Part shown: piece after piece, positions 23,902 to 45,456 of the stretch
How the letters are laid out: the number at the start of each line of letters is the position of its first letter
Position numbering within the stretch: position 1 is the first letter of the stretch
Virus record (IMG/VR): IMGVR_UViG_3300013014_000020
Location: 51,295-115,294 of that record
Strand: one strand, 5' to 3'
Length of the DNA: 64,000 nucleotides
Source: a virus
Notes under the pieces: generated by a model
What the model was told of the DNA's origin: nothing
The model's database searches: none
Seen by the model: only the letters and a program-made list of their open reading frames with translations
Position numbers and translations under genes: made by a program

Positions 23902-25797
23902 TTATACAATATTTAACACACCACCATTATTCCAAACTGTTCCTGAAGCAAGGCCTGCTGAACTTGTTGGTAAATTACTCAAATGTAGACAGTTCATATG
24001 TGCCGTATTTGCCGCTGTTGTTGTAATACCATTACCAATAATAAAAGAACAATCGTGCGATACTGTATTTCCGGACCCACCAAGAATACCAGAGTGAGAA
24101 TTTGTTATAGTGTTTTGAATACCACCAACAACAAGTGAATAACATCCACTTGATACGTTACAAGCGCCACCACCAATAAACGAACAACCACAATTTGTCA
24201 TATTACCAAAACCACCACCTATTGTTGAGTAAACTCCACTACTAGTGTTGGTTCCACCACCACCTATTGTTGATCTATCACCAAAAGCACGATTAAAATA
24301 ACCACCACTAACAGTTGATGTATCACCACTTGATGTGTTTTGACAACCACCACCAATTACAGAATAATCACCTAATGCTAGGTTACCGTTAGTACCGGAT
24401 GATGAACCACCACCACCAACTGTTGAGTAATTACCGCTTGCGGTATTACAACGACCACCAAGAATTGATGACGCAAAACCTATTGAGGTGTTACAAGTAC
24501 CACCAACAACAACTGATTCGGGCGAATCCGTAACATTACACCCACCACCACCAATAAATGATGCGGGTCCGTTTGCTGTGTTTACATAACCACCACTTAC
24601 TGTTGATAAATAATTACTTGATGTGTTAAACGCACCTCCACCAATAAATGATGCGGGTCCGTTTGCTGTGTTTCCGTAACCACCACTTATAGTTGAACTT
24701 TCGCCGATTGTTGTGTTTCCTAAACCACCACCAATAAAAGAAAATTCTGAAGTTACAACATCATCTAAATCAAAGGTTAAATTATTTGTTGGTGATGAAC
24801 CACCAATAGTATTACCAGAAACTAAAACTTGTTCTCCTTGTTCATATCTTACACCTGTATTTATGATTATAATGTTACTAACAACACCACTACTAACATC
24901 AAAACTAAATTGTAAGTTTGAACCATAACCAACTAAACTAGTTGGATTAACTGTATATGTGTTATCTGTGATTCCAGATAAACTACCAGAATTAAAACTA
25001 ATTGAGGTTACAAAACCACCATAATTTGTATTTCCTAATCCACCTCCTATTGTTGAAAATTCACCTAGTATAACGTTTTCACATCCACCACCATTAAATG
25101 TGTAGTAATTTCCTGATGTGTTACACTCACCACCACTTATTGTTGCTCCGCCCGTTGCGCCACCACTTAATATTGTTGTATTAGAAAGCCCACCACCAAT
25201 TGTATCAAATTGGTTTTCGGAAAGATTATTACGACCTCCACTTACGGTTGATTGATAACCAGATGATGTGTTAAACGCTCCACCACTTACGGTTGAGTAA
25301 TAACCACTTGATGTGTTACGATAACCACCACTTACGGTTGAATGATAACCACTTGATGTATTTCTACGTCCCCCACTTACTGTTGAATAACACGCACTTG
25401 ATGTATTTTCAAGACCACCTCCTACGGTTGAAGAATTACCACTTGATGTGTTATTAATACCTCCACTTACTGTTGAACCATAACAACTTGATGTGTTAAG
25501 ATAACCACCACTTACGGTTGAATGATAACCACTTGATGTATTTCTACGTCCCCCACTTACGGTTGAGTAATTACATCCGGCAGTATTTAAAAGTCCTCCA
25601 CTTACCACGGAGTAATCACCAATTGCTGAACCACTTACATTTACTAATTGTACGGAACTACTTCCAGAACCAACTTCATATAGTTGTGTTGATCCAGTAA
25701 TATTTGATGTCCCCGTAACAATTAAATTCCCATTAATTGTTATATCACCACCTATGGTTTGTCCCGATAAGTTATTTACTATGTATTTTATTGCCAT
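23902..25797 (-). CDS. Fibre/adhesin-like protein with 15-aa STVSGGxxNTSSGxx beta-solenoid repeats
   Basis: Many GG-N repeats; one inserted Gly-rich domain; C-terminal NLPTSSAGLASGTVW cap shared with the 47192 and 50540 ORFs. Confidence 0.75.
   Translation of the reverse strand: MAIKYIVNNLSGQTIGGDITINGNLIVTGTSNITGSTQLYEVGSGSSSVQLVNVSGSAIGDYSVVSGGLLNTAGCNYSTVSGGRRNTSSGYHSTVSGGYLNTSSCYGSTVSGGINNTSSGNSSTVGGGLENTSSACYSTVSGGRRNTSSGYHSTVSGGYRNTSSGYYSTVSGGAFNTSSGYQSTVSGGRNNLSENQFDTIGGGLSNTTILSGGATGGATISGGECNTSGNYYTFNGGGCENVILGEFSTIGGGLGNTNYGGFVTSISFNSGSLSGITDNTYTVNPTSLVGYGSNLQFSFDVSSGVVSNIIIINTGVRYEQGEQVLVSGNTIGGSSPTNNLTFDLDDVVTSEFSFIGGGLGNTTIGESSTISGGYGNTANGPASFIGGGAFNTSSNYLSTVSGGYVNTANGPASFIGGGGCNVTDSPESVVVGGTCNTSIGFASSILGGRCNTASGNYSTVGGGGSSSGTNGNLALGDYSVIGGGCQNTSSGDTSTVSGGYFNRAFGDRSTIGGGGTNTSSGVYSTIGGGFGNMTNCGCSFIGGGACNVSSGCYSLVVGGIQNTITNSHSGILGGSGNTVSHDCSFIIGNGITTTAANTAHMNCLHLSNLPTSSAGLASGTVWNNGGVLNIV
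25321..25560. repeat. 45-bp-period coding repeats with an identical 60-bp duplication
   Basis: 25321-25380 is identical to 25501-25560 (offset 180 = 4 x 45). Confidence 0.9.
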
Positions 25798-25818: not shown

Positions 25819-26445
25819 TTATTTTTGAAAAAATTTCTCAATTCTTTTACTTAATCTAACTCTTGGGTCATTTATTGTTCTACCAACATCTTCATATTTT
25901 AACACAAACCCAAAACTTAAAAAAACTCTTCTTGAATTGAATTCATTTGTCCAATGTTTATACAGAGAAGCTTCAAACCCATATAAATCAGATTCTTGTA
26001 TTTTAACCGACTCTTTATCCACATAAAAATCATAATCTTCTGACAACACACTGATGTTACATTTATAATTAACATACCCATCTATTGATGCGTCATAGTG
26101 AGGATTTATTTTTCCTCCTTTATTCATATCAACGGATTGTAAAAAAACATTATCTTTTGGAAAATTAAACTCTTCTGTTATCCTATCTATTATTTTATAA
26201 ATAAAATTAGGTAATGGTTCTTTTGAAACATCTGAAATTGATTGAAATTTTGTAATGTAACTAGTTAAAGGAGTGTTAGAAATATCAAACATATAAGATT
26301 TACCATTTAATGATTTGGATAACTCTGTAAGGTGATGATTACTATCATTCCCGGTATGGTTAATAGATTCAATCCAATTAACTATCTGATTTGACTCATC
26401 ATTTGTGATGAATTTTTTTATTATTTTATAATTTTCAGATTCCAT
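25819..26445 (-). CDS. 2OG-Fe(II) oxygenase (prolyl-hydroxylase-like fold)
   Basis: GG.INPHYD (HxD), H in LYKHW, distal R in SRRVFLSF. Confidence 0.75.
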   Translation of the reverse strand: MESENYKIIKKFITNDESNQIVNWIESINHTGNDSNHHLTELSKSLNGKSYMFDISNTPLTSYITKFQSISDVSKEPLPNFIYKIIDRITEEFNFPKDNVFLQSVDMNKGGKINPHYDASIDGYVNYKCNISVLSEDYDFYVDKESVKIQESDLYGFEASLYKHWTNEFNSRRVFLSFGFVLKYEDVGRTINDPRVRLSKRIEKFFQK

Positions 26446-26669
26446 TTATTAAGAAATTCTTTTGGACCAATTTCTAATTCCATAATAGATAAGTTTTTCT
26501 TAGCGTAAATAGAGTTCATTTTTTCCTCAGATCCTGCCATGGTACAAAACCAATGTGTTGCAGGTTCTTCACCTGTTGATGAACAAGGTATTTTCATAAC
26601 ATTTTTATTTATCCAACCTTCTCTTACTTGTTCTACCTTATCGTTTTCAGTTAAAATATTTATTCTCAT
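26421..26669 (-). CDS. Hypothetical protein
   Basis: 82 aa; P.S.TGEEPATHW.C motif; co-oriented within the operon. Confidence 0.6.
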   Translation of the reverse strand: MRINILTENDKVEQVREGWINKNVMKIPCSSTGEEPATHWFCTMAGSEEKMNSIYAKKNLSIMELEIGPKEFLNKWNLKIIK

Positions 26670-26695
26670 ATTTTTTATTTTTTAGTCATTTTAAT

Positions 26696-27979
26696 TTATG
26701 CTGGTGTTGTTGTTGTTCTTTCCCCATACGCAACTATACCCGATACTGTATTTACAATTGTAAACTTATAAATATACAATGTATTTCTAGCACCATTAGT
26801 CCATGATTTAGTCCATATTTGAGGAACTCCATCTATTTTAAACCCTGTTATTTTCCAAGTATTTCCCGATATATCAGCATTTGACGCAATTATCTTTATA
26901 GATGTCGAACAACCATCAGGTAAATCAAAATTTGTTAAATTAACTATCCAATCCGATGTTGCATCAACCCCAAAATGAACAAATGTTGTTCCAATAGAAC
27001 AATCATAATTTACAGTACCAGATGGTGATGGTAAATTTGTTATCGCTCCTGTTATGTTTGGAGAATATATTGATCCTGTTATAGTTAATCTATCTGCATT
27101 TATAAATTGAAAATAATCAATAGAGTTAGTATTAGTCCCCGTAAGAGATGAATTTGGTTTATCATAGATGGTATTAATAATTGAATAAATACCCGCAACG
27201 CTAATGGGTGCAACATTATTACCTGCCTGAACAAGAACTTGACTATTAAGCAAAGTTAAAGTTGTTGCGGAATTAGTAATAGTTATAGCATTTCCACCTA
27301 AAGCTGTTACAATACAATCAACTATAGCTAGATTACCCGCGCTAGCGGAAGGTGTAACAACACTATTACATCCTTTTACAATGACTTGTGCTGAAGCATT
27401 ACTTACGGATATACCAACATTTTTATTTCCGTTAATGATTATAGTACCCGAACCTGAAATTTGAATACCGGATATACATTGCATTTCCGAGTTAATAATC
27501 TCTACATAACCACTAGAAGATTTAGTAACTTGAGTATCAACGGTACAGTTGCTTATATAAGCTTGAGCCGTTCCACTAATAACAAGGTTAGTCATCTTCA
27601 AACCCGAAATACGGGAGCCAGAACCTAATGTGCCGATAGTTAAAGTTCCATATAATAAAGTATTAGCACCTGTAAGTTCAGATGTTTGAATTGTAGTATT
27701 ACCATCTGCTACAGTAATGTTTTCATTATAACCGCCTGGATGAACAATAATTGTTTTTCTATTACCAGCAACCAAAGTTAATGCCTTAGTAATAGTTGCA
27801 ACGGGATTAAGTAAACTGCCATCGCCTGTAGTGTCGTTTCCATCTATTTGACTTACGTGTATCTCATATTGAAAATTTGACGAAACATTATAATATGTTG
27901 TTGCCGATATAGTATTCGTGGTTAAATCACCATTTATGGTTTGTCCCGATACGTTATTTACAATATATTTTGTTGCCAT
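26696..27979 (-). CDS. Fibre/tailspike-like protein with DUF1565/pectin-lyase-like beta-helix
   Basis: HVS..DGNDTTGDGS..NP.ATITKAL...VHPG.Y.E motif; N-terminus shared with the 23902 ORF. Confidence 0.7.
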   Translation of the reverse strand: MATKYIVNNVSGQTINGDLTTNTISATTYYNVSSNFQYEIHVSQIDGNDTTGDGSLLNPVATITKALTLVAGNRKTIIVHPGGYNENITVADGNTTIQTSELTGANTLLYGTLTIGTLGSGSRISGLKMTNLVISGTAQAYISNCTVDTQVTKSSSGYVEIINSEMQCISGIQISGSGTIIINGNKNVGISVSNASAQVIVKGCNSVVTPSASAGNLAIVDCIVTALGGNAITITNSATTLTLLNSQVLVQAGNNVAPISVAGIYSIINTIYDKPNSSLTGTNTNSIDYFQFINADRLTITGSIYSPNITGAITNLPSPSGTVNYDCSIGTTFVHFGVDATSDWIVNLTNFDLPDGCSTSIKIIASNADISGNTWKITGFKIDGVPQIWTKSWTNGARNTLYIYKFTIVNTVSGIVAYGERTTTTPA

Positions 27980-27997: not shown

Positions 27998-29074
27998 TTA
28001 GTCAATTGGTAATCCGGACATATACCCAACAGTAATATCACTCCACCCTATACCAAATTCATGCTTCATAACTTTATCTACAACGACATATGATTCAAAT
28101 TGTGTTGTACCGGTACTAACATCAGAATTAATAAAAATACCACTTAAAAAATATACATCATTTGTAGTGTTTCCGGTTACTTGACTTGGTAAATTTGCAA
28201 TAATATAATCATAAGCAGAATCCCTGATAGTTTCCGTGGCAAATATCATTTGTTTATTATAAACCTCTTCAGTAGTTCCTGTGAATCCACTTAAAGTAGA
28301 TTTAAATGGCCATAAAATATCGGTCAATTTCCAAAAAGAATAATTTTCATTATTAAAAGGTGCGTTATTTTGATTTGGAGGTGAACTTAGTTGATTTACA
28401 ACTTGGTCAATTGCTCCCGCAACGGCACCACAGGTATTATCGGTTAAACTATTTGCCTTACCCCTTCTTAACATTCTACCTGAACGACCGTCTTCAGTAA
28501 CACCAATGTGTGGCGTACTTGTTACAAACAAGGTTCCACCAAGAGTTGTTGCTACGTGACTTGCAAATGCCCCAAATCCAACACTACCAACAAATGGATA
28601 ACCTGCCAATCCACCGGACATAAACGGCCCTAAAAACGAATTAATACTGGTTGGCCATCCACCGATATTTCCGGGTAAATATGCTGCATCAACGTCATCA
28701 GAACAAATACCTTCAGCTAAAACAATATCAGTTGATGGTATTCCTTCATTTGTAATATATTCTGTTGTGTATGTTCCCCATACTTCAGATAATACCGCTC
28801 CTGAGAATGGTTGGTATCCTCCGTCAACAGTAACAGTTCTTACTGTTTGAGTATATGCACTCTGACCTTCTAACGGTGCTGGTACAATTATTTCGTATGT
28901 TCTATCATATAATGGAACGTCTAATTCGTATGTTCCATAAGGATAACCCGAAATATTATTAAATGGTATTGTTTGAGTACCTAAGTCAACGGTTCCACCA
29001 GTTGTGGGTAAAAAAGTAACATTTGTCGTAAGTCCCGATAAATTTGTACTTGTTATTCTAATTCCTTGTATCAT
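27998..29074 (-). CDS. LCIB/LCIC-type (beta-class-like) carbonic anhydrase domain fused to an N-terminal virion-decoration module
   Basis: ICSDD, GPF.SGGLAGYPF.G..GFGAFASHV, PHIGV..DG..G...R.G, CGA; candidate Zn ligands Cys/His/Cys. Confidence 0.8.
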   Translation of the reverse strand: MIQGIRITSTNLSGLTTNVTFLPTTGGTVDLGTQTIPFNNISGYPYGTYELDVPLYDRTYEIIVPAPLEGQSAYTQTVRTVTVDGGYQPFSGAVLSEVWGTYTTEYITNEGIPSTDIVLAEGICSDDVDAAYLPGNIGGWPTSINSFLGPFMSGGLAGYPFVGSVGFGAFASHVATTLGGTLFVTSTPHIGVTEDGRSGRMLRRGKANSLTDNTCGAVAGAIDQVVNQLSSPPNQNNAPFNNENYSFWKLTDILWPFKSTLSGFTGTTEEVYNKQMIFATETIRDSAYDYIIANLPSQVTGNTTNDVYFLSGIFINSDVSTGTTQFESYVVVDKVMKHEFGIGWSDITVGYMSGLPID

Positions 29075-29136
29075 TTTTTTTGTTTTTTTTGTTTTTTTTG
29101 TTTATTTTTTATAATAAATATTGTGTTATTTATTTT

Positions 29137-31710
29137 TTATATTACTAACCCATAATTTAAATCGTCTTCAGGTATATCTAAAACAACAATATCGTTAATA
29201 TAAACTATTAATCCATAATTCAAATCATTTTCTGGTATGTCTAATGCGTTTAATCCACCTAAACAAGGAGCTTCGGTTAATGTTTCTATTGTTAGAACAT
29301 CTGATTCATCATAATATGATAATCTATCATCTCCATTTTTATTTTTGAATACATTAACTGTTGTGATATCATATAACATACCTGTACTTAAACAAGTACC
29401 GACAATTTCGGCATTAACAATATTCCATTGAAATGAATCACCTATTTCATTACTACGGAAATTATCAGGTATAGTGTTATTATAGAAATATTCACCAATA
29501 GTATTATTGTAAAAATTATTCCCAATTCTATTTCCTTGAGAAGTATTTATTCCAAAACCAAATCCATCTTGAATTTCATTACTACTAAAATAAGACCCTA
29601 TTGTGTTATATGTGAATGAACCATAAAAATCATTAAATGTAAAATGGTTACCAATTATATTTGAATATGTGCCGCCACTAAGATTGTTGCTCAAAAAATT
29701 ATAACCTACATTATTAAATTTAAAATCATCAAATATTTCATTAGCTTTAAAATCTGTTTTAACTTGGTTATCTGTAAAATCACCTTGAATATCATTTCCT
29801 TTAAAGTTATTCATAATTTGGTTACTTTCAAAAGTAAGACCTAAATTATCATCTTCACCAATTGTGTTTGTGTTAAAACCATTTAATATTGAATTTTTTC
29901 TAAAATCAAAATAAATGGTATTAGTGTTAAAATCATTTAAAATGTTGTTATATTGAAAATTAAGTTTAATTATATTACCTTGAAATTCGTTTCCAATTCT
30001 ATTACCCCTAAAATCATATTCCCCGATAATTGAACTGTCTCCAATTGTATTACCATTAAAAACGTGTTCAATAGTATTTTCATAGAACTCTGAATATATG
30101 GTGTTATTATTATATCCGTTTCCAATTAAATTACGATTAAATTGTGAATAACTTTGATTACCATTATACCCATTACCAATATCATTATTATAGAAGTCAT
30201 CATAAATTTTATTATTATTGAACTGATTTCCTATTTCATTATTTTGAAAATCATCAGAAGTATAAACGTTATCCCTAAAATCATTTCCAATATTGTTTCT
30301 ATAAAAAGACCCTCCTAGTAAAGTGTTACTATAAAAATCACTACCAATTCTATTATTATTAAAATTTGCGGTGATATAGTTGTTGTTAAAGTTTTCACCA
30401 ATTATATTACCGTCAAAATCATCGTTTGTTGAGTTGTTATAAAAACTATCACCAATTTGATTATTATCACAATCATCATTAAATGTGTTATTATAAGAAC
30501 CGTTACCGATGGTGTTGTTTCTAAATGAACCACCTAATAATACATTATTTGCAAGTAAAAAATTTCCAGTACCAAATTCTAAATGTAGATTAGAATAGTT
30601 ACCAATATAATTATTAACCGCTCCACTATTATCAATAACATCTCCAAATGTTGTGTATTCAAAAACTTGGTCTTGTCTTACATTGGGTTGGTAATAACTC
30701 ATTATACCATCATCATTTCCATAATAATAAATTGAGTCAGTGGTTACACTTATTGTTACACCTGATATAATTGCTAAAGAATTGCTTACAACAGATAAAA
30801 CTTCAAAAAATGAAGGATTTAAATTTTGTACTGAAACAATGTCTCCTGTTGAGAAATTTGAGGTAAATGTTGTACCCGTGTTACCATATAACACGGCAGT
30901 TGTTCCTGTTAAACCACTTATCCCAACAAGACCACTTAATGGTTGATTTTCGTAATATGAATATCCACGATATCTTTTAAATAAAATACTTCTGTTGTCA
31001 TAATCAGTTCTATTATTAAAGTTATCAATTCTTTCAGTGATTCTACCTTTTGCAGGACTGCCGGTTACTTCAGTTGTATTCCAAGTTATGTCGTATGTTA
31101 TTTTGTCTTGAGGGTATAATGTAGAATATACGGTAGGTGAAAACCCTGTTGTAGATATCGCCAATAATAAAATTGGTTCTGTTGTTCCTGTTTTATAGTT
31201 ACCCGTTGTAATTGGATTTTTTACATTATTGTAGTTTGGTTGGTCATAACAAGTTTGATAATCAGTCATCAAGTAATATCTACCAGGTATTAATATACCA
31301 TTACCAGCATCGGCAACAAGTTGTGAATATGTTCCACCAGTTACAAATACATCTGTTGATCCTGTGTATAAACCGCTAATTGATAAAGAACCATTTTGTC
31401 TATTAAGTGTTATTGTACCATTAGAATATGTCCCGCCAGTCACATAAAAATCTGTACCACCAGTATATAAACCGCTAATTGATAAAGAACCATTTTGTCT
31501 ATTAAGTGTTATTGTACCATTAGAGTATGTACCACCAGTTACAAAGTTGTCTGATACACCACTTAATACATAATTTTTAAATTGTACTATTGGTGTTTGT
31601 TTTGTTTCACCAGTTATACTACCCAAGTAATTTACAATTGGGATAATGTCGTTTGTTGTATAACCTGAATTACCTAAGTATGGTAACTGTGAAATTTTCT
31701 TATCTGCCAT
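29137..31710 (-). CDS. Fibre-like protein with VTGGTY repeats and an Asn-rich NxIGNxFxxN beta-solenoid
   Basis: MADKKISQLP start; 33-aa duplication (99-bp offset, 31371 vs 31470); long NxIG repeat region; duplicated LDIPExDLNYGL tail. Confidence 0.7.
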   Translation of the reverse strand: MADKKISQLPYLGNSGYTTNDIIPIVNYLGSITGETKQTPIVQFKNYVLSGVSDNFVTGGTYSNGTITLNRQNGSLSISGLYTGGTDFYVTGGTYSNGTITLNRQNGSLSISGLYTGSTDVFVTGGTYSQLVADAGNGILIPGRYYLMTDYQTCYDQPNYNNVKNPITTGNYKTGTTEPILLLAISTTGFSPTVYSTLYPQDKITYDITWNTTEVTGSPAKGRITERIDNFNNRTDYDNRSILFKRYRGYSYYENQPLSGLVGISGLTGTTAVLYGNTGTTFTSNFSTGDIVSVQNLNPSFFEVLSVVSNSLAIISGVTISVTTDSIYYYGNDDGIMSYYQPNVRQDQVFEYTTFGDVIDNSGAVNNYIGNYSNLHLEFGTGNFLLANNVLLGGSFRNNTIGNGSYNNTFNDDCDNNQIGDSFYNNSTNDDFDGNIIGENFNNNYITANFNNNRIGSDFYSNTLLGGSFYRNNIGNDFRDNVYTSDDFQNNEIGNQFNNNKIYDDFYNNDIGNGYNGNQSYSQFNRNLIGNGYNNNTIYSEFYENTIEHVFNGNTIGDSSIIGEYDFRGNRIGNEFQGNIIKLNFQYNNILNDFNTNTIYFDFRKNSILNGFNTNTIGEDDNLGLTFESNQIMNNFKGNDIQGDFTDNQVKTDFKANEIFDDFKFNNVGYNFLSNNLSGGTYSNIIGNHFTFNDFYGSFTYNTIGSYFSSNEIQDGFGFGINTSQGNRIGNNFYNNTIGEYFYNNTIPDNFRSNEIGDSFQWNIVNAEIVGTCLSTGMLYDITTVNVFKNKNGDDRLSYYDESDVLTIETLTEAPCLGGLNALDIPENDLNYGLIVYINDIVVLDIPEDDLNYGLVI

Positions 31711-32329: not shown

Positions 32330-34000
32330 TCAACATTCTTTTCTTAATTCTGCACTATAAAAATCAAAACGGTTGTGCTCAGTTGGTGTGATAAGTAACA
32401 GTCCAGGTTTTAGATTACTTTTGACTGTTTCTTGGAAATTATAAGACATAAGTGTTTGTTCATATGGAAAATCAAATTTATTTTTTAAATAACATTTGTA
32501 GTTTCCTTCTTTTGACATAAGGATTGGCCAATTAGAAAGATAAATTTGTCCGCTAGCATATGGTACGCCTTCATATGATTTTATATTATTAAAAAGTAAA
32601 CAAGGAGCCTCTGGATCATAACCTTGCACTGGTAAGTTAGGTTTTTCTGGCCAGTGGTTTTGTCTAAACTCTTGTGGTACATTATACCAGGACCATTGTG
32701 TTTGATGTGAACCAAAAAATTCTGTAAAGTTCATTTTAAGAAAATCAAATTCTTCTGTCTTTAATATGTTTAGAGTTTTTGAAAAAAGGTTTTCTACATA
32801 TCGGTTAAACCCATTTTTACAAGTACCAGAATTTTTATTCACAAATAGCATATCATCCTCAAAGAAAAAATAATAACCCAAATCTTCTTCTTTGTTAAAA
32901 TGTTCGGCAATAAATTGTCTTCCACCGGTTATCCCAATATTATCTTTTTTAATGTGGTCAAAACCATATCTTAAACAAAGTTCATTATATTTTGGTGTTG
33001 TATTTAAATCCGTTGAATTATTTAATAAAAATTTCTTCGTTCCGTTAATAAAATTTGGGTCATAAAATAACATACTTTTTATTAGCGACTCAAACTGTGA
33101 TGGTGAGTTAAAACTTATAACATATAAGCCAACACCATTAGAATTTATGTTTGATTTTATAATTTTGTTTTTTTTATTTTTAATTACAAATGTATTATTT
33201 TTTACATCTTCAAAAAATTTATACATCAAACCATTTGATTCTATTTCACAATAATCAATCATTGATGGATAAAGATAAGTCATAATTGTAAAAATACTTT
33301 CTTCGGTTCCCATCAAATTTTTATTTAATGTGTCTATTAATAATTGGTAGTATAAAACATTTAAGTCAGCAATTTTTTGTTTTGTTCCACCAAAAAACCC
33401 ACCTCTTGAGACAAACTCTGTTTTTGTTTTTGCGTAGTCACACATTTTTTTATAATCAAATCCGTGCACTTCGTTTTCCGCTTCATAAGGAAAGACAACA
33501 AACATAAATTTATCAAATAAACTTTCTATTTTATCTAATACATTATCACGAGTAAAATACCCCAAATTAACCGTGTTAGTTAATCCGGCGTCTATCCAGT
33601 AAAGTTTTTCAGAATTAAAAGGATCCAAAATAGATGCGTCGTGTAGTAAAAACATTTTGGACATTACAAGTGGATTGTAATATTCTAATCTTGCTTGTGT
33701 TGATTCTTTTAACCAACCAGAAAGATTATACCAATTTTCATTTGTCCTTATTTTTTGAATTTTATCAAAGTATTCGTTATTTCTAAACCAAGATAAATTC
33801 CTATTAATAAATTTTGTATTGTTTGGGTTTCTATACTTGAATACAAATTCCTCTAATTGTTTATCACCAAAAATAATTAAGTTACAATCTATTTGTAATA
33901 ACTCTTTAAATTTTTCTAAATAATAATCAAAAGATCTATTCCACCCTTCATTTAGGTTACCCCTACCAATATCCCATAAACCTGTAACTAATGTTATCAT
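32330..34000 (-). CDS. HtrL/YibB(WlaTC)-like glycosyltransferase fused to a GT-A domain
   Basis: TLVTGLWDIGR, Y...MSK..L..A....PF....YWIDAG, GGFFGG, GTEE; second domain with FFEDD. Confidence 0.7.
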   Translation of the reverse strand: MITLVTGLWDIGRGNLNEGWNRSFDYYLEKFKELLQIDCNLIIFGDKQLEEFVFKYRNPNNTKFINRNLSWFRNNEYFDKIQKIRTNENWYNLSGWLKESTQARLEYYNPLVMSKMFLLHDASILDPFNSEKLYWIDAGLTNTVNLGYFTRDNVLDKIESLFDKFMFVVFPYEAENEVHGFDYKKMCDYAKTKTEFVSRGGFFGGTKQKIADLNVLYYQLLIDTLNKNLMGTEESIFTIMTYLYPSMIDYCEIESNGLMYKFFEDVKNNTFVIKNKKNKIIKSNINSNGVGLYVISFNSPSQFESLIKSMLFYDPNFINGTKKFLLNNSTDLNTTPKYNELCLRYGFDHIKKDNIGITGGRQFIAEHFNKEEDLGYYFFFEDDMLFVNKNSGTCKNGFNRYVENLFSKTLNILKTEEFDFLKMNFTEFFGSHQTQWSWYNVPQEFRQNHWPEKPNLPVQGYDPEAPCLLFNNIKSYEGVPYASGQIYLSNWPILMSKEGNYKCYLKNKFDFPYEQTLMSYNFQETVKSNLKPGLLLITPTEHNRFDFYSAELRKEC

Positions 34001-35241
34001 AAATCACCAACTAGTCTATCACACCAACCTTTTGATTTTGAATGTGGCCATACAACCCAATACTTCGGTTTTTCTTTTGCGTTAAACTCCCTCCATATTT
34101 TTCCATAACCGTCGGCATCTGTTTTTATTCTTTTGATTTCTTCTTCTTGTGCGTCCATACGATAAATTGTTTCATCTTTATCGTTATGAAATGCAACAAC
34201 TAAAAAATCATAATCGTCTTCTGGTATTTTATCTAATGGGACATCAATACAATGTTTAAATATTCTTAAAAAACTTTCTTTCCATTCTTCTTCGTTTTTA
34301 TAATCATATGGGTTTGGTGGATAATTTTTATCTATTGTATATTGTTGTACGGATCTTTTCTCAAAAAGAACACCAGAATATTTTTCGTAATCACCAACTG
34401 TCCTCACATTTCCAAAACCATATTTTAATTCACCATCATATTTTTCACCATCAACCCCCAAAACTTTTCTGTTTTTACTATGTGAACTTTCATTTTTCTT
34501 ATACCATACACTATCATCATCCCACTGTTTTGTTCTACCTTTTCTTGTGTATTCGTGATAAATAACAATTTTATGTGGATGGAATAAATCATATCCGTGC
34601 GTGTAAGCACGAACAGCAATTGATATTTCTTCTCCGTGAAAATAATATTCCGGATCATGCTGAACCTCAACTGAAAATTCACCTAACGTGAAACAAAAAT
34701 GCGCCGAATAAAATCTTGCTGGGATTGGTTTTTGCAACTCTTGCCATCCTGGTATTACTTCTGGTAAAAAGAAAACAACACCTTCTGGTGTAAATCTATC
34801 AAAGACCATTCTCCACGGCTCTTTAACTCTTCCTTGTGGGTCATTTTCTGGGTCAAAAGAAGAAACATATCCTGTTAATAATGGTTTTTTATATCCATCT
34901 TCTTGCAATTCCTTTAACATTTTAATTAAAGTTTCATCCCAATTAGGTTCAAAACGCATATGAGAATCTAATTGTAACGTGTATGTTTCACCACTATATA
35001 ATTGTTGGACTTGATGTCTTGCCCAACAAACACCGGTTGATTCTGTGTACGGTATATTTAAAATTCTAAAACGATTATCATTTTCATATTCAATTAAATC
35101 ATCAAACTTATCATCTGAATGAAATTGTCTAGCAATACCTAATCTTAAATTTTCTGGGTATTTTGCCTTATCCAACATATCTTTAATTGTTGGTATAAGT
35201 TGGGGGTCTCTATAAGACGCGATTTGTATAAATATTGTCAT
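33997..35241 (-). CDS. GT60-like polypeptide/hydroxyproline alpha-GlcNAc transferase (Gnt1-like)
   Basis: IFIQIASYRD, GVCWAR..Q.LY.GE.Y.LQLDSHMRF...WD, P.L..Y, F.GEE, H.Y.R, G..RT..DYE..SG. Confidence 0.85.
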   Translation of the reverse strand: MTIFIQIASYRDPQLIPTIKDMLDKAKYPENLRLGIARQFHSDDKFDDLIEYENDNRFRILNIPYTESTGVCWARHQVQQLYSGETYTLQLDSHMRFEPNWDETLIKMLKELQEDGYKKPLLTGYVSSFDPENDPQGRVKEPWRMVFDRFTPEGVVFFLPEVIPGWQELQKPIPARFYSAHFCFTLGEFSVEVQHDPEYYFHGEEISIAVRAYTHGYDLFHPHKIVIYHEYTRKGRTKQWDDDSVWYKKNESSHSKNRKVLGVDGEKYDGELKYGFGNVRTVGDYEKYSGVLFEKRSVQQYTIDKNYPPNPYDYKNEEEWKESFLRIFKHCIDVPLDKIPEDDYDFLVVAFHNDKDETIYRMDAQEEEIKRIKTDADGYGKIWREFNAKEKPKYWVVWPHSKSKGWCDRLVGDL

Positions 35242-35257
35242 AATTAGTTAAAAATAA

Positions 35258-35476
35258 CTAACACTGATAAAAATTAAATATTTCACAATTGTTTGAATCA
35301 ATAAGTTTTACAAGTAACGAACCCACGTTATTTAATGGTTGTGGGACATCAAAGATATATGTGGAAATATACGTACCTCCAGAAACTAAATAACAATAAG
35401 TGTTTGTAATATCACAAACATACACATCGTAAGGGGGGTTTCCTGTAACACCGGATATTGTTATTTGGTTTGTCAT
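35258..35476 (-). CDS. Small Cys-containing beta-sandwich decoration-like protein
   Basis: 72 aa; ITISG.TG.PPY.VYVCD...C and K.IDSNNC. Confidence 0.55.
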   Translation of the reverse strand: MTNQITISGVTGNPPYDVYVCDITNTYCYLVSGGTYISTYIFDVPQPLNNVGSLLVKLIDSNNCEIFNFYQC

Positions 35477-35495
35477 ATTTTATATTTCTAACGAC

Positions 35496-35879
35496 TTAAA
35501 AACTTAACAACTCATACAACAAAGAAAAAGCAATACCAAAAAGAACTCTGGATATCATAACACTAAATAAACACATTAATTGTGTTGAGCAAGGTAAAAA
35601 GATAAAAAAGATTCCCCCAAATATAAAAAAGGTTCTTAATAATTTAAAAAGGTGCCACCCGTCAGTTAAACCAACTAACAATGTTTTTGAAAATAAAAAT
35701 TTACGACCTAACGTTGGGTCTCCGTCTTTATACTTATTTCTCCAAGAAATACTTGGATCCCAAAAAAGTTTATTTTTTAACTTAAAAAAATATGACGAAC
35801 CATAGTGAAACTGCAAGGTGTCCATTACGGCTTCGCACATCCCAGCGATTATAAAAAATAAAAAACCTAAATATATCAT
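35496..35879 (-). CDS. Membrane protein
   Basis: Three hydrophobic segments; A.MDTL..H, W.P..SW.NKY and TDGWH motifs. Confidence 0.65.
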   Translation of the reverse strand: MIYLGFLFFIIAGMCEAVMDTLQFHYGSSYFFKLKNKLFWDPSISWRNKYKDGDPTLGRKFLFSKTLLVGLTDGWHLFKLLRTFFIFGGIFFIFLPCSTQLMCLFSVMISRVLFGIAFSLLYELLSF

Positions 35880-36073
35880 TTTGATTCTTTAATAAAATTT
35901 ATATACCAAACAATAGAGGCGATAAGTCCTCCATAACAAGTAATAAAAACCATAATTTTTAAATATAGGTTATCCAAATAACCATCCATTAACCAAGATG
36001 GGTATAAAACTGACCCAACTAAAAATAAAATGATTAATAACCAAGAAGAAACGTGTAATTTAAAATTTTTCAT
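35876..36073 (-). CDS. Small two-TM membrane protein
   Basis: Two hydrophobic stretches; ATGA overlap with the next gene; preceded by TATTTAT. Confidence 0.55.
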   Translation of the reverse strand: MKNFKLHVSSWLLIILFLVGSVLYPSWLMDGYLDNLYLKIMVFITCYGGLIASIVWYINFIKESK

Positions 36074-36137
36074 AACCTTTTATTTAATAAATATCACATT
36101 AGTTAATAACCAACAAATTTAAAAAGTATTTATTATT

Positions 36138-36686
36138 ATGGATAATAAATTAAAAAATCTAAAATTAGATTTGTTGTTAAAAGAATTAAAACTTTTGGAT
36201 TTGGAAAGGGAGTATGTTGATGAGTTTACAAAACATTACAGACCAATTTTTATGCAGGAATTAACTAAAAACGGTTACAAGGCACAAGTAGTGTCTGGAG
36301 AAACTTTAAATACATCAATTAAAAAAGAAAATAAAATTAATGCTGATGAGAATGAATTAAAAACTATAAAAAATATTTTTAGAAAAATTGCTAAGGTATC
36401 TCATCCAGACAAAACTAAAAATATTTATAAAAATAAATTATATGATGAAGCTCAAATTGCTTACGATAAAAATAATTTATTAGTCCTTTATAAAGTAGCA
36501 AAAAAACTAAATATTGATATTGAGTTAAATGTTAGTAATTTACTACTTATAGAAAAAATAATTAGTGATGAAAAAAAGGAATTGTCGTCCGTTGAAACAT
36601 CCTTTTTATGGATATGGGCTAACACAGAATCACAAGAAAAAAAAGACGAATTAATAAACCAATTTATAAAAAAACACGGGGAATAG
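36138..36686 (+). CDS. J-domain (DnaJ-like) protein
   Basis: LKTIKNIFRKIAKVSHPDK (HPD motif) followed by Y..A..AY. Confidence 0.75.
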   Translation: MDNKLKNLKLDLLLKELKLLDLEREYVDEFTKHYRPIFMQELTKNGYKAQVVSGETLNTSIKKENKINADENELKTIKNIFRKIAKVSHPDKTKNIYKNKLYDEAQIAYDKNNLLVLYKVAKKLNIDIELNVSNLLLIEKIISDEKKELSSVETSFLWIWANTESQEKKDELINQFIKKHGE

Positions 36687-36688
36687 TT

Positions 36689-37873
36689 ATGAAAATAGGA
36701 ATAACACTTGGACTTAAAGATAATCAAGAATCTATATGGACAAACGGAATAAAACAAAACGTTTTGATGTTAACACATCTTTTAAAAAACTCAGAAAAAA
36801 ATTATGATGTCTGTATTTTAAACTCTATGAATATAGATCTTACAGAAAAACCTTCATATCTTGATGGAGTTGATATTCACTACTTTAACGATAAGTTCTT
36901 AGAGATGGATTTATTAATTGTAATGGGCGCTCAAATATTTGATTACCAACTTGAGACATTTAAAAAATCTGGACCAAACAAAAAAGTAGTTTCATATAAG
37001 TGTGGAAATAATTATGTTATTCATATGGAAAACATATTATTTAAACCGAGTGAAGATAAAAAATTCCAATATGAGAGACAATATGATGAAGTTTGGTATG
37101 TACCACAACAAGATGAAGTAAATTCAGGTCTTTACAAAACATTATATCGTACAAATGCCTTTGCTGTCCCTTTTATTTGGTCAGAAAAATTTTTATTTGA
37201 ATCAGTTAGAGAAATCCATAAAGGATTTAAGGAAGGAAAATACACTAAAGACTGGCAGTATGATGCAACAAAAGAAAAAAAGATTTTGGGTATTATGGAA
37301 CCGAATTTGAATATTGTTAAATTTTGTTTAATTCCAGCGATGATTGCAGAAGAATCATATAGAACTATTGAAGGACGACGACATATTGAAAAACTTAGAA
37401 TTACAAATGCTACCACCGTTTCAAAACATAAGGAATTTATGTCTATAATTCAAACATTTGACTTGTTTAAAGAAGGTAAGATAAGTGCTGAATCACGTTA
37501 TCAAACGGCGTATATGTTGACACAACATTTAGATGTATTGATTTGTCATCAGTTATTAAATCCCCTAAATTACTTATATTTAGATGCCGCTTATTTAGGG
37601 TATCCGGTATTACACAATGCCCCAATGTGTAAAGATTTGGGTTACTATTATGAAGGTTCAGATACGGTTGAGGCATCTAAAATATTAAATTATATTTTAA
37701 CTAAACACGATAAAAACATAGATGAGTACAACGAAAAAAACGATAAAGTATTACAACGATATCATATAGACAATCAAGAAGTGGTTAAAACATACGATAT
37801 GTTAATTGAGAACTTATTTAATGGGGGAAATAAGGATTTAGTATATGACCCAATGACCAATTTATACAAATAA
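36689..37873 (+). CDS. DUF2827-family putative glycosyltransferase
   Basis: SIWTNGI.QN, CGNNY, W..PQ, VPFIWS, EPN..VK..L.P, HQ..NPLNY.Y.D....GYP..HN, LGYYY. Confidence 0.8.
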   Translation: MKIGITLGLKDNQESIWTNGIKQNVLMLTHLLKNSEKNYDVCILNSMNIDLTEKPSYLDGVDIHYFNDKFLEMDLLIVMGAQIFDYQLETFKKSGPNKKVVSYKCGNNYVIHMENILFKPSEDKKFQYERQYDEVWYVPQQDEVNSGLYKTLYRTNAFAVPFIWSEKFLFESVREIHKGFKEGKYTKDWQYDATKEKKILGIMEPNLNIVKFCLIPAMIAEESYRTIEGRRHIEKLRITNATTVSKHKEFMSIIQTFDLFKEGKISAESRYQTAYMLTQHLDVLICHQLLNPLNYLYLDAAYLGYPVLHNAPMCKDLGYYYEGSDTVEASKILNYILTKHDKNIDEYNEKNDKVLQRYHIDNQEVVKTYDMLIENLFNGGNKDLVYDPMTNLYK

Positions 37874-37892
37874 AACAATTTAATATAAATGT

Positions 37893-37925
37893 AAAAAGGG
37901 ACTCTTTCGAGTCCCTTTCTTTTTT
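37893..37925. terminator. Bidirectional intrinsic terminator
   Basis: AAAAAGGGACTC-TTTC-GAGTCCCTTTCTTTTT between convergent genes. Confidence 0.85.
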
Positions 37926-37942
37926 GAAAGTTAATCTAACGA

Positions 37943-40405
37943 TTAATACATACCGTAAACAGCAACTTTATCACCTGTTCTAGGAGCAGAAATAAATGTT
38001 ACTGAAGTTGTTGTAATTGTATAATCACCAGCATCTTGTAATAAACCATTCAAGTAAACTGCTTGTGAACCTGTTCTAAGTTCGTTATTGAATGTGAATT
38101 CAGTAACAACACCATTAGCAGTTTCAACTACACCAGCATTTCTAAAATAGATATTAGCAAAATCATCAGCTAATGACAATTCAGCGCTTTCCGCTCTAAC
38201 TACCTCAGTTGACAAGTTAGCAACGATTTCAGTAAATGAATCAATTTCAGTTACGTCGATGTTAGATATCAAGTAAGAAACTTGAGTTGACAATTCTGTA
38301 GCAATTGAATCTTCAGCGTTTTCAGCTCTTACTATCTCAGAAGATAATGCAGTTTCCAATGATCTGTCAATAAATACTCTGGCAGACGTTTCAGTAAATA
38401 AATCATCCTCTAAACTTGCATCAGCATCTTGACGGTTGCTAATTTCTCTATCTATAGCAAATTCTCTAGTTGAAACTTCAGTAGATAAATCAGCTATGAT
38501 TGAATAATCCGCAACAACTCTTCTACTAACTTGAGTTGATAATTCAGTAGATAAACTCGTATCAGCATCTTGACGTGCGTTAGCTTCAGAAGATAAATCA
38601 GACTCTAAACTTGCATCAGCATATGCACGTGCGTCAGCTTCATTATTGATTTCTAAACCAATTGATGTAACCGCAGATAACAATGCGTTATCGTTCTCTA
38701 AATCAATTCCATTAACGAACTCAACGATTTCAGCAAATTGATCTAAATCAACTTCAGAACCATCAAGAATAGCATCAATACGTCCTTGTTCTACAGATAC
38801 TGCAGACGCTAAAGATTGGTCAGCTGCTAAACGAATAGACGCTTCATTATTGATTGCAGTTCCTCTGTTAGAAACTTCAGTAGATAAATTGTTAGTCAAT
38901 ACTAACTCAGCACTCATTGCTCTTGACTCTTCAGCATTAACGTCAGCGATTCTGTTAGAAACTTCAGTAGATAAATTGTTAGTCAATACTAACTCCGCAC
39001 TCATTGCACGAGACTCTTCAGTATCAACATCAGCGATTCTGTTAGAAACTTCAGTAGACAAATCACCTCTTAATACCGCTTCAGCACTAGTTGCACGTGA
39101 TTCCTCAGCATCAACATCAGCTATTCTGTTAGAGATTTCGGTAGACAAGTTAGCAGTAATAGACGCATCAGCAGAAACTCTATCAGATTCTTCGTTTCCT
39201 ATAGAGGTTTCCAATGAAGCATCAGCAGCAGCACGAGCATTCTCTTCAGTATTCACACGTTCTGACAATGAAGTATCAGCAGAATTCATAGTTGAAGTCA
39301 ATTCGGAAACTTCAGCAATTCTTTCTGAAATTTCAGTAGATAATGCAGCATCAACAGATGAATTAGCTATTGATAAGTCAGTTGAAATTTTACCTTCTAA
39401 ACTTGTGTCAGCATTTTCTCTGTTTAACGTTTCAGTTGATAAATCAGACGCTAATGAATTATCACCAGCAATTCTTGCAGATACTTCAGTAGATACAGCA
39501 ACTTCTCTGTTAGCAACTTCAGTTGATAAGTTAGCAGCAACAGAAGCGTCACCAGAAATACGAGCAACTTCTTCTAAAGATACTGCAGCAGTTCTATCAA
39601 CAACTTCAGTTGATAAGTCAGATGCCAAAGATTGGTCAGCAGCAAAACGAGTTGATGCTTCAGCAGATGTTGCGATAGATGCGTTAGTTGCAAGTTCAGT
39701 AATTGCACCATCTAATTCACCATCCATTGATTGGTAAGCAGCAACGATTTCAGTTAATGAATCTAAAGCCGCTGGATCTGTGTTTGAAATAACATAGTTA
39801 ACTTTAGCATTCAATGAAGTTTCAGCAGATTCTGCTCTTGCGATTTCAGAAGATAAATCAGTTTCTAATGAAAGATCAGCCGCGTTCATTGCATTTTCTA
39901 AACTCTCATCACCAACAACTCTTAAAGACGCTTCAGCATCAATGTTGTTTTGTAATGATTGTTCAGCTACCATTGCACGAGATTCTTCAGCATCAACATC
40001 AGCTTCTCTGTTAGCAACTTCAGTAGATAATGCAGTTGCAATTGAATTATCACCAGCAATTCTGTTAGACACTTCAGTAGATACTGCAGCTTCACGGTTT
40101 GTTACTTCTGTAGATAATTTAGTCGCGATTGAGTTATCACCAGCGATTCTGTTAGAAACTTCAGTAGATACTGCTGCTTCACGATTTGCAACTTCTGTAG
40201 ATAAGTTAGAAGTGATTGATTGGTCACCTAAAATACGATTAGATACTTCAGTTGACATTTCTAATGATACGTTAGTATCAATTGATGCAACTGTAGATGT
40301 CAAACCTGAGACATCCGTCATCACTAAACCTGTTGGTGTGGTGATGGTTGCGTTTGTAAGGATTAAGTCCGACTGTCTGTCTAAGACTATTCTAGTATTC
40401 GCCAT
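37943..40405 (-). CDS. Long coiled-coil fibre protein with LSTEVSNR repeats
   Basis: About 29-aa periodicity (87-bp offset duplications near 38870/38957); three LDS/QxxEIV knuckle motifs; C-terminal VYLNGLLQ..DY domain shared with the 40936 ORF. Confidence 0.75.
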   Translation of the reverse strand: MANTRIVLDRQSDLILTNATITTPTGLVMTDVSGLTSTVASIDTNVSLEMSTEVSNRILGDQSITSNLSTEVANREAAVSTEVSNRIAGDNSIATKLSTEVTNREAAVSTEVSNRIAGDNSIATALSTEVANREADVDAEESRAMVAEQSLQNNIDAEASLRVVGDESLENAMNAADLSLETDLSSEIARAESAETSLNAKVNYVISNTDPAALDSLTEIVAAYQSMDGELDGAITELATNASIATSAEASTRFAADQSLASDLSTEVVDRTAAVSLEEVARISGDASVAANLSTEVANREVAVSTEVSARIAGDNSLASDLSTETLNRENADTSLEGKISTDLSIANSSVDAALSTEISERIAEVSELTSTMNSADTSLSERVNTEENARAAADASLETSIGNEESDRVSADASITANLSTEISNRIADVDAEESRATSAEAVLRGDLSTEVSNRIADVDTEESRAMSAELVLTNNLSTEVSNRIADVNAEESRAMSAELVLTNNLSTEVSNRGTAINNEASIRLAADQSLASAVSVEQGRIDAILDGSEVDLDQFAEIVEFVNGIDLENDNALLSAVTSIGLEINNEADARAYADASLESDLSSEANARQDADTSLSTELSTQVSRRVVADYSIIADLSTEVSTREFAIDREISNRQDADASLEDDLFTETSARVFIDRSLETALSSEIVRAENAEDSIATELSTQVSYLISNIDVTEIDSFTEIVANLSTEVVRAESAELSLADDFANIYFRNAGVVETANGVVTEFTFNNELRTGSQAVYLNGLLQDAGDYTITTTSVTFISAPRTGDKVAVYGMY

Positions 40406-40636
40406 AAAATGGGTTTTAAAAAATTATTTATAAAAATGTGTTCTTTTACACCAAAAAACCTTAACACTAGGTTTTAAGTTTGTTGATAAATAGTATACCA
40501 GAATACCTCTTTAAGAAAAGTATTCTTTAATATAAATTTTTTTATGTGGATAAATATTAGATATTAATAATTGTTAGGAAGAACCCTAAACTTGTTTTCA
40601 TATAAATATATTAATAATTCTAAAAAGACTAAAAAA

Positions 40637-40873
40637 TTATAAATTATATAATAAATTTTTTAAATTCTTAATTGAATTGGTATATAAAAGTGGATCACAA
40701 GACCCTCTCTCATTTAAATAATCGTTAACATTTAACATTAAATCCTCTGTTTTATCAAAAACAAAGACCACTCGGTTTTTGCTTTTTTCAACCCTCATTT
40801 TAAAACTTTTTAACCTTAAAAAGGCAGATAAATATAAATCACTTGTTTTGTATTCTAATTCTTGCTCCATCAT
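40637..40873 (-). CDS. DUF5659-like small putative DNA-binding protein
   Basis: Y.TSDLYLSAFL...F.F...Y......K.LK pattern. Confidence 0.6.
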   Translation of the reverse strand: MMEQELEYKTSDLYLSAFLRLKSFKMRVEKSKNRVVFVFDKTEDLMLNVNDYLNERGSCDPLLYTNSIKNLKNLLYNL

Positions 40874-40935
40874 TTTTTATTTACTATTATAAATATGTTA
40901 ATATTTTAGGTTGTGCCAATTTTATAAAAATTTTT

Positions 40936-41721
40936 TTAATAAAATCTATATGAACAAGTAATTTTACTCCAAGAAGTTGGGGCAAGATTAAATGTTATAG
41001 TTTTTCCGTTTATGGTGTAATCATTATTTTCACCAGGATCTTGTAGAAGACCATTTAAATATACGTGATCGCTTCCAGGTTTTGGTAGTGTGCTAAGCTC
41101 AAAAACTTTATTTATTCCGTCAATACCCCCAATCGGATTTTCGTGGTCAATAAAGTTTATTTCACTATAAGTTCTGTAAGTACATAATAATTTACTACCT
41201 ATTTTTGGTGGTTCATTAAATGTTATTGTTTTTCCAACTATTAAATAATCTAATTGTTCACCTTTGTCTTGTAAAAGACCATTATAAAATAAATGTTCTG
41301 AATTTATTTCAGGTGTGAATCTTAATGAAAAAACTTTATTTACACTATCTATGTTTCCAGATATTAATTCTCTATCAATAAACGTGGACGCATTAACTCC
41401 CGGTATTAATAAATTGTCACGTAAATTATTTAAAACCTCTAATTGTGTTGATGATAAAAAAAAGATTTCTTCCCAATCCAAAATATCAAAAGACCAAAAA
41501 TTATTTTTGAGTTTAAAGTACTTTGATCCCCCATTTACACCAACAATCATTCCAGGCCTTCTTCTATCATAAGAAATAAGGTCTAAATCAGATTCTTGGT
41601 CAACATTTCTTAACCCATCTACTCCATACAAAGGATCGGTAACAGCATAGGTATCTAAAGTATCCATTGGCGAAATGAACCCCATAATACCAACACCACC
41701 AATCTTACTAAAATCGGACAT
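40936..41721 (-). CDS. Structural protein with two tandem GxIDGxNKxF...YLNGLLQ...DY.I.G.TITF domains
   Basis: Internal duplication visible in the translation. Confidence 0.65.
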   Translation of the reverse strand: MSDFSKIGGVGIMGFISPMDTLDTYAVTDPLYGVDGLRNVDQESDLDLISYDRRRPGMIVGVNGGSKYFKLKNNFWSFDILDWEEIFFLSSTQLEVLNNLRDNLLIPGVNASTFIDRELISGNIDSVNKVFSLRFTPEINSEHLFYNGLLQDKGEQLDYLIVGKTITFNEPPKIGSKLLCTYRTYSEINFIDHENPIGGIDGINKVFELSTLPKPGSDHVYLNGLLQDPGENNDYTINGKTITFNLAPTSWSKITCSYRFY

Positions 41722-41747
41722 CTACATCAAAAATATACATATATTAT

Positions 41748-43484: not shown

Positions 43485-43515
43485 TGTATATTTTTATAAA
43501 TACAATCAAACAGAC

Positions 43516-43719
43516 TTATTTTTTAATTTTAATCATTTTATACCAAGCTCTTTCGTGTATAAAATAAATAAAAGGTTTAATTAATAGTTCACCCAAACCA
43601 ATTAAAGATGAAACCTCTATTGATGCACCAAGTAATAACGCGGTTCCAATTGTTGTTAATGTTGCAAAAAATCTATAAGTCAAAGTTTTTAATATGTGTC
43701 TTTTTAAATCAACCTGCAT
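43516..43719 (-). CDS. DUF2061-family small membrane protein
   Basis: RH..KT..YR...T and K...Y..HER.W motifs. Confidence 0.8.
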   Translation of the reverse strand: MQVDLKRHILKTLTYRFFATLTTIGTALLLGASIEVSSLIGLGELLIKPFIYFIHERAWYKMIKIKK

Positions 43720-43730
43720 ATTATATTAAA

Positions 43731-44549: not shown

Positions 44550-44552
44550 AAA

Positions 44553-45437: not shown

Positions 45438-45456
45438 ACTTTTATTATATAAATTT

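Follow-up and report, generated by a model that had tools for sequence, protein, structure and literature searches.

A candidate virion-borne carbonic anhydrase of the LCIB family behind an interchangeable N-terminal module in a large lake phage

What would a large tailed phage do with a carbonic anhydrase of the LCIB (theta) type, an enzyme that reviews place in diatoms and green algae as part of the CO2-concentrating mechanism? The question is raised by an open reading frame (ORF) at 27998..29074, minus strand, of a 64,000-nucleotide stretch of viral DNA (positions 51,295 to 115,294 of IMG/VR record IMGVR_UViG_3300013014_000020; hereafter the window, meaning the whole stretch analysed), the source of which is the 115,294-bp contig of a large tailed phage. 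The ORF encodes 358 amino acids (aa), an N-terminal module followed by an LCIB-type carbonic anhydrase domain, and a first-pass annotation made from the letters of the DNA had taken the product for a carbonic anhydrase displayed on the phage particle. Whether the protein is indeed a late, virion-associated, dimeric carbonic anhydrase appears to us an evenly balanced matter, and the evidence on each part of that proposition is set out below together with the readings that compete with it.

The C-terminal part of the protein (aa 87-358, 28001..28816, minus strand) is a genuine LCIB-family domain whose active site is complete and strongly conserved, an assignment that draws on Pfam, on sequence matches in the PDB and on Foldseek. 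The Pfam profile PF18599 (LCIB_C_CA), which had been named as a check of the proposed family, matches aa 103-332 over profile positions 11-216 of 223 with an E-value (E) of 3.9e-27 and 95.4 bits against a cut-off of 25, and it is the single match in a Pfam scan of the ORF at E<=0.01. A phmmer search of the PDB returned 6kfs (E 6.5e-14), PtLCIB4 from Phaeodactylum tricornutum (5b5y, E 2.3e-10) and also 9vzj, with the Chlamydomonas LCIB (CrLCIB) matching weakly (E 0.21). An AlphaFold2 model of the ORF built from a 45-row alignment has a mean predicted local distance difference test score (pLDDT) of 90.8 and a predicted template modelling score (pTM) of 0.83, and superposition of this model reveals the LCIB fold, as the annotation had anticipated: Foldseek matches it to 6kfs and PtLCIB4 with E 5e-13 to 9e-12 and template modelling (TM) scores of 0.79-0.80 by target (6kfs: E 5e-13, TM 0.80), and to CrLCIB and its partner CrLCIC at the greater distance of TM 0.68. 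Membership in the canonical beta-carbonic anhydrases (Pro_CA) was considered and rejected, as the Pfam scan returned no Pro_CA match and the fold matches are poor (E 1.7e-3 or worse, TM 0.23-0.49 by target), so that kinship with them exists at the level of the superfamily only.

The motif set reported earlier is present throughout the domain (CSDD at aa 124, GGLAGYPF at 154, ASHV at 171, PHIG at 188, RRG at 203 and TCGA at 214). With residue numbering anchored on the PDB entries named S47R and H88A and on the alignment to 5b5y, the zinc ligands of PtLCIB4, Cys46, His102 and Cys126, are equivalent at the sequence level to C124 (codon 28703..28705), H189 in the PHIG motif (28508..28510) and C215 in the TCGA motif (28430..28432), all on the minus strand. 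In the same alignment S125 corresponds to Ser47 and is followed by D126, H173 (28556..28558, minus strand) corresponds to the non-ligand catalytic His88, and R203 lies within the RRG motif. Among 95 unique phage LCIB proteins, all 95 are invariant at C124, D126, D127, H173, H189, R203, C215, N316 and D318, as are the 80 bacterial homologues compared (80/80), save one sequence that is gapped at N316 and D318. Position 125 is serine in 90 of the 95 phage homologues and alanine in the other 5; in none is it the arginine that occupies this place in the PtLCIB4 S47R mutant entry 5b60. CrLCIB itself is said, in the 2016 work of Jin et al., to have arginine at the position equivalent to Ser47.

The equivalents of the histidine and the arginine matter for catalysis in the LCIB family (PMC5876011), and PtLCIB3 and PtLCIB4 are constitutively active (PMC9614477). 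CrLCIB and CrLCIC, which form a heteromeric complex around the pyrenoid, are inactive in vitro although their architecture is equal, the equivalent histidine and arginine being disordered, and they have been proposed to act partly as a non-catalytic barrier (PMC5876011). For the phage protein, the conserved residues suggest both zinc binding and catalytic activity. The Chlamydomonas proteins are also the precedent for a reading in which the phage has re-used an LCIB dimer as a rigid building block or decoration, non-catalytic and with zinc kept for stability, and the long stem of the phage clade described below could reflect such a change of function. We consider this very improbable, since some of the non-ligand catalytic residues should have been lost from a protein that is scaffold only, whereas D126, H173 and R203 are retained in every one of the phage proteins, as they are in bacteria.

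The protein is predicted to form a homodimer with its active sites beside the interface. Prediction with two copies gave an ipSAE (interaction prediction score from aligned errors) of 0.87 against 0.00 for the best control, with at least 76% of contacts shared and a partner pLDDT of at least 82; 20 of 30 solved homomers attain this mark, as does 1 of 23 monomers, and the pass may stem from likeness, because similar LCIB dimers have already been solved. The predicted interface lies solely in the enzyme domain (residues 115-249, 290, 294 and 323) and leaves the N-terminal module free. It takes in the active-site neighbours 125-131, 148-156, 172-173 (and with them H173) and 203-207.

The N-terminal module (aa 1 to ~76, 28847..29074, minus strand) is modelled as a six-strand immunoglobulin (Ig)/fibronectin type III (FN3)-like beta-sandwich and is a putative attachment handle. 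Its strands (3-7, 16-23, 29-35, 38-42, 47-53 and 58-64) number six in the model of the full protein and also when the module is modelled by itself (pLDDT 85.3). A fold search returned only generic Ig/FN3-like sandwiches, the best Z (5.9) being tied among usher, type IX secretion C-terminal-domain and FN3 folds, and Foldseek with the module found no match at E<=1e-3; in BFVD the only good match joins the module, over 75 columns, to a 740-aa protein, itself uncharacterised, from an uncultured phage. Several of the sorting domains that Bacteroidota type IX secretion uses at the C-terminus of its cargo match the module model (28841..29074, minus strand) with Z 4.8-5.7 and a root-mean-square deviation of 2.5-2.8 over ~62 residues. 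A sorting role of this kind was ruled out because the module is N-terminal, beginning at residue 1-4 in 52/52 of the module-only clusters introduced below. The connector that follows (aa 77-102, 28769..28846, minus strand) holds, joined with aa 68-76, a Q..YT..V helix (aa 71-79) that, according to alignments and the model, is common to the phage LCIB proteins and missing from the bacterial ones.

Comparison of sequences firmly indicates that this is an interchangeable N-terminal module, separable from the enzyme domain. A search through all of 1.84 billion representatives yielded 751 matches, and cluster content was counted on 149 of the best 150 of these: 97 clusters carry LCIB, 54 carry the module and 2 carry both. 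About half of the module-only clusters run from the module straight into linkers rich in proline, threonine and serine, and one runs into collagen-like repeats. In IMG/VR loci related to the window the module heads non-LCIB proteins of 127, 159, 496, 566, 693, 787 and 910 aa. In one of them (L056:7072-12092) three consecutive module-headed genes of 566, 159 and 693 aa occupy the place of the LCIB gene, no LCIB gene being detected within the 20-kb locus, and this locus shows an apparent exchange of cassettes behind a constant handle. What was found is the architecture of one N-terminal domain placed on several different proteins and followed by a linker and a variable part.

A second copy of the module is present in the window, at aa 1-82 (43239..43484, minus strand; iterated hidden Markov model (HMM) E 1.2e-24) of a 578-aa ORF rich in proline and threonine (PT-rich; 41748..43484, minus strand). 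A likeness between this ORF and the N-terminus of the LCIB protein had been noticed at the outset; it is real, and weak in pairwise comparison (BLASTP E 0.004, 30% identity over 61 aa, gapped). An HMM built from the N-termini of LCIB fusions alone does not match the PT-rich ORF of the window and does match its orthologue in a related locus (L011:1567-2079, E 1e-7) as well as eight other non-LCIB ORFs, two of them identical. The link is consequently transitive through that orthologue and is visible only with iterated profiles. No ORF of the 115-kb contig other than the LCIB ORF and the PT-rich ORF bears the module. As regards the other proteins behind the module, a Pfam scan of them returned no match, one matches a PHROG virion structural protein weakly (E 8e-7), and the ESM Atlas result for the 693-aa protein, with feature scores below 0.8 and a beta-propeller-like match at TM 0.44, is a lead only.

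The fusion is widespread among viral sequences, the point for which a database search had been proposed. At E<=1e-3 the whole ORF has 275 homologues; among the 120 of these that were listed, identity is 78-94%, length 340-363 aa (mostly 358) and contig size up to 320 kb. IMG/VR holds 56 loci at 47-95% identity, and at least 180 IMG/VR stretches with LCIB relatives that carry other N-terminal extensions of 18-144 aa emerged from a second scan. A quick maximum-likelihood tree (IQ-TREE, unrooted, with support from the Shimodaira-Hasegawa-like approximate likelihood ratio test, SH-aLRT) groups all 34 sampled phage LCIB domains into one clade with SH-aLRT 100 on a stem of 1.47, separate from a bacterial clade and from a clade of tandem-domain proteins that are eukaryotic where the source is named. 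The phage LCIB domains are by this tree firmly placed as an old, phage-specific clade, found in the sample on viral contigs only.

Two further arrangements were observed within the phage clade. Seven loci (L057:8001-10067, L059, L060, L104, L108, L124 and L125) have two adjacent LCIB genes, the first of 361-406 aa and the second of 285-314 aa, with the longer and the shorter each in a subclade of its own, a pair that recalls the LCIB/LCIC pair of Chlamydomonas. Four loci (L053:9653-11983, L054, L061:7635-9965 and L063) encode a 776-aa variant with a different N-terminus, LCIB at approximately aa 104-384 and an extra C-terminal extension of ~390 aa; it nests within the module-fusion subclade (support 98).

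The position of the LCIB gene was compared among these genomes. In each of the 56 IMG/VR loci the gene belongs to a variable cassette in which the genes are fibre-like, with conserved genes on one side and the polymerase on the other. Other phage lineages show four placements: 105-114 nt after the major head gene (phrog_138, E 1e-82); 1-4.8 kb away from a major head gene (34 loci, counting those directly adjacent); directly after the portal gene (phrog_213, E 1e-108); and after a collagen-like tail-fibre gene.

These observations bear on the main rival reading, in which the protein is an auxiliary enzyme that works inside the cell, supplying bicarbonate from CO2 in the cytoplasm for the carboxylations of nucleotide and lipid synthesis or steadying the pH, and never enters the particle, the N-terminal module binding an intracellular partner instead. 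The catalytic site is under strict purifying selection, as this reading would have it. Bacteria carry single-domain LCIB homologues, which argues for a cellular use of LCIB activity: such genes occur in 483 stretches of species genomes, and the best 80 are nearly all from freshwater Bacteroidota, a ranking that is biased because a query of bacterial type favours such top matches. At ambient CO2, heterotrophs require carbonic anhydrase for growth. The gene is also found in lake metatranscriptome assemblies, four of which have contigs that span it end to end; this is a weak hint only, because the runs were picked for holding the gene and DNA carry-over is possible, and the contigs cannot rank expression, nor do uncovered stretches carry any meaning. 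Virion proteins are moreover cytoplasmic before assembly, so that both roles could coexist.

Against an exclusively intracellular role stands, first, the tree: because the phage domains form one deep clade on a long stem, recent capture from a host is less likely, and the candidate class of an auxiliary metabolic gene recently taken from the host was rejected on this ground and on the position of the genes beside head, portal and fibre genes. A lack of recent capture does not in itself exclude an intracellular role. The genes do, however, lie in several lineages in such structural surroundings and not in metabolic islands, and the module is common to proteins with PT linkers and to collagen-like and fibre-like ones, for which a place within a cell is hard to conceive. 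We hold the intracellular reading to be unlikely on balance, though it is the chief alternative.

The placements directly after the portal gene or the major head gene bear on another rival, since this is a common site of genes for internal head proteins. The enzyme could be packaged in the head or along the tail and delivered with the DNA, raising the supply of bicarbonate or shifting the pH from the first minute of infection, and known turnover rates imply that very few carbonic anhydrase molecules would be enough in a cell of femtolitre volume. The module, on the other hand, is shared with long PT-rich, mucin-like proteins that are better suited to an outer surface than to a packed head, a folded dimer of 80 kDa would be awkward to pass through the tail channel, and no cleavable targeting peptide was seen, although no systematic search for one was made. 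An injected enzyme appears improbable to us. The intracellular and the injected readings are both compatible with enzyme activity.

A virion-borne carbonic anhydrase remains the reading that we favour, and it may be envisaged as follows. The C-terminal 270 residues would act as a zinc carbonic anhydrase of the LCIB (theta, beta-like) family that interconverts CO2 and bicarbonate as a homodimer, and the first ~76 residues, a small Ig-like sandwich, would serve as the interchangeable handle. The same phage group appears to put this handle at the extreme N-terminus of many fibre-like and mucin-like proteins, often with a flexible Pro/Thr stalk behind it, and the handle may dock these proteins onto a repeated site of the virion, in which case the particle would bear the dimeric enzyme alongside the PT-rich protein. 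The benefit could lie in CO2, bicarbonate and pH chemistry, exerted either where the particle meets the host surface or inside the cell as soon as the phage enters. Expression of the gene would be late, and attachment to the virion is probable, attachment being deduced from the architecture of anchor, linker and cargo, from the fibre-like and mucin-like company that the module keeps and from the repeated placement of LCIB genes in morphogenesis modules. The case for display on the particle is strengthened by the strictly N-terminal, linker-followed module and by the phage LCIB genes that stand beside head, portal and tail-fibre genes in other lineages.

Several points weigh against it. Intact residues permit catalysis and do not prove it, because CrLCIB and CrLCIC keep them and are nevertheless inactive in vitro (PMC5876011). 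In the structural models the fold of the module appears as a generic sandwich, linked to no domain known to bind capsids or tails, and for most of its cargo proteins no structural family was matched. A place within a structural module does not guarantee that the product of a gene is structural. The benefit of display is itself in doubt, because the few enzyme molecules on a free particle cannot alter the chemistry of the bulk water. A tblastn search with the whole protein and with the module against 50,697 deposited phage records, a set that may lack the record of the window itself, returned no match. The last result, together with a literature search that found no paper linking LCIB to phages and with BFVD, in which no LCIB-like viral structure was found, also agrees with the opinion of the first-pass annotation that nothing of the kind had been described in phages.

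A broader form of the favoured reading, which we offer tentatively and regard as possible rather than probable, is a plug-in display system. One module would dock PT stalks, collagen-like fibres, possibly propeller-like proteins (a weak lead) and a working carbonic anhydrase, giving an enzyme-bearing and possibly glycosylated coat that uses CO2, bicarbonate and pH chemistry at the host surface during adsorption or entry.

Known systems resemble the phage protein in part. PtLCIB4 and PtLCIB3 (5b5y) and 6kfs belong to the same Pfam family and share the fold (TM 0.79-0.80), the Cys-His-Cys ligands, the serine after the first cysteine, the aspartate, the equivalent of His88 and the arginine, and for the phage protein too a homodimer through this domain is predicted. 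The phage protein differs from them in that identity is only 20-22% in structural alignment, that it is phage-encoded and falls in a separate phage-only clade, that it adds the Ig-like module together with a clade-specific helix and an insertion (the NIGQ.P.S...FLGP region), and that it has no chloroplast or CO2-concentrating context. Chlamydomonas LCIB and LCIC (5k5w, 5b5x) share the family and the zinc motif and are more distant (TM 0.68). The single-domain bacterial proteins (~250 aa; Flavobacterium, Runella and Emticicia are among the top 80 matches) have the same domain with identical invariant residues and lie on the same side of the unrooted tree as the phage clade, away from the tandem-domain branch; they are, however, separated from that clade by a branch of 1.47 and are without the N-terminal module, the phage-specific helix and the insertion.

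As to the module, Hoc-type Ig decoration proteins and tailspikes with N-terminal adaptors likewise place one small domain on several proteins with many types of cargo, flexible linkers and variable fibre cassettes. The module nevertheless has no sequence kinship or specific fold kinship to those attachment domains, virion binding is putative here, and the cargo is an enzyme of metabolic type instead of a receptor-binding or glycan-degrading domain.

A large LCIB clade on viral contigs, with the active site intact and the genes repeatedly found in virion-building modules, is of interest under more than one reading. To our knowledge, the enzyme activities borne by virions cut glycans or cell walls, so that an enzyme of this family riding on the particle would be a virion-borne activity of a previously undescribed kind, and inorganic-carbon or pH chemistry would be implicated as a factor in the infection of lake bacteria by phages. 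For large phages the handle could also provide a portable display tag of natural origin. Should the enzyme work inside the cell instead, phages of heterotrophic bacteria would have a viral metabolic gene of a new kind.

The immediate neighbours of the LCIB gene in the window agree with the earlier statement that it sits among fibre genes. The downstream neighbour (26696..27979, minus strand, 427 aa) is tail-protein-like (phrog_4577, E 4.2e-7), a further gene on that side (23902..25797, minus strand, 631 aa) is fibre-like, with UspA1/YadA-like head repeats (PDB 3pr7, the trimeric adhesin UspA1, E 5e-17), and the upstream neighbour (29137..31710, minus strand, 857 aa) is repeat-rich and fibre-like with no family match; the position of this 857-aa gene beside the LCIB gene is kept in many related loci. 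Searches of PDB sequences with the neighbours at 26696 and 29137 gave no match. The N-termini of the proteins at 23902 and 26696 were considered as truncated copies of the module and rejected (profile E 0.5-1.5). Those two proteins (23902..25797 and 26696..27979, both minus strand) share an N-terminal motif of their own of ~20 aa, MA.KYIVNN.SGQTI.GD, distinct from the module of the LCIB protein, and the shared sequence suggests a second attachment motif. Some metatranscriptome contigs join position 25796 directly to 27985 and come from strain variants without the 2.2 kb that carries 25819..27979; the gene order of these variants matches that of two related loci (L008 and L010).

A TATTTAT heptamer, to which the first-pass annotation had attached some weight, is present at 29114..29120 (minus strand), 46 nt upstream of the ATG, where it is a possible, not specific, promoter element. 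It gives no real support to display. The heptamer occurs 66 times in the window against 51 expected, a mild enrichment, and it also precedes non-structural genes, so that it says little; as a mark of late promoters it was rejected for the same reasons.

The source appears to be an uncultured large lake myophage, with hints of a host among the Bacteroidota. Its DNA is found repeatedly in lake-water metagenomes. The window (G+C 31%, no tRNA genes found in it) encodes a 1218-aa tail sheath, a family-B DNA polymerase, an SNF2 helicase, many glycosyltransferases and a sulfotransferase. By the sheath, the nearest deposited relatives are Microcystis phage Mel-JY01 and Flavobacterium phage immuto at 31-34% identity, distant T4-like myophages. 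In the sheath protein itself (9651..13307, minus strand) sheath domains are recognisable in approximately the last 300 residues only, the first ~900 having no family match. A Shine-Dalgarno-like 4-mer occurs at -20..-4 in 1 of 38 genes of the window and the leaders are 50% A; such leaders, poor in Shine-Dalgarno sequences and rich in A, would fit translation initiation of the Bacteroidota type and hint at the host. The G+C content of 31% and the kinship of the sheath to that of a Flavobacterium phage likewise point to the Bacteroidota. The stretch 32330..47107 holds a dense run of glycosyltransferase-like genes (HtrL-like, a GlcNAc (N-acetylglucosamine) transferase of PF11397, DUF2827, GT9-like and GT8) and the sulfotransferase, with the PT-rich module-bearing ORF interleaved, a run whose gene content is compatible with a role in modifying virion proteins. 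Finally, a 698-aa protein at 17012..19108 (plus strand) contains a complete Fe/Mn superoxide dismutase at aa 165-354 between flanks of ~160 and ~340 residues that have no family match, and this ORF is kept in most related loci at 53-90% identity.

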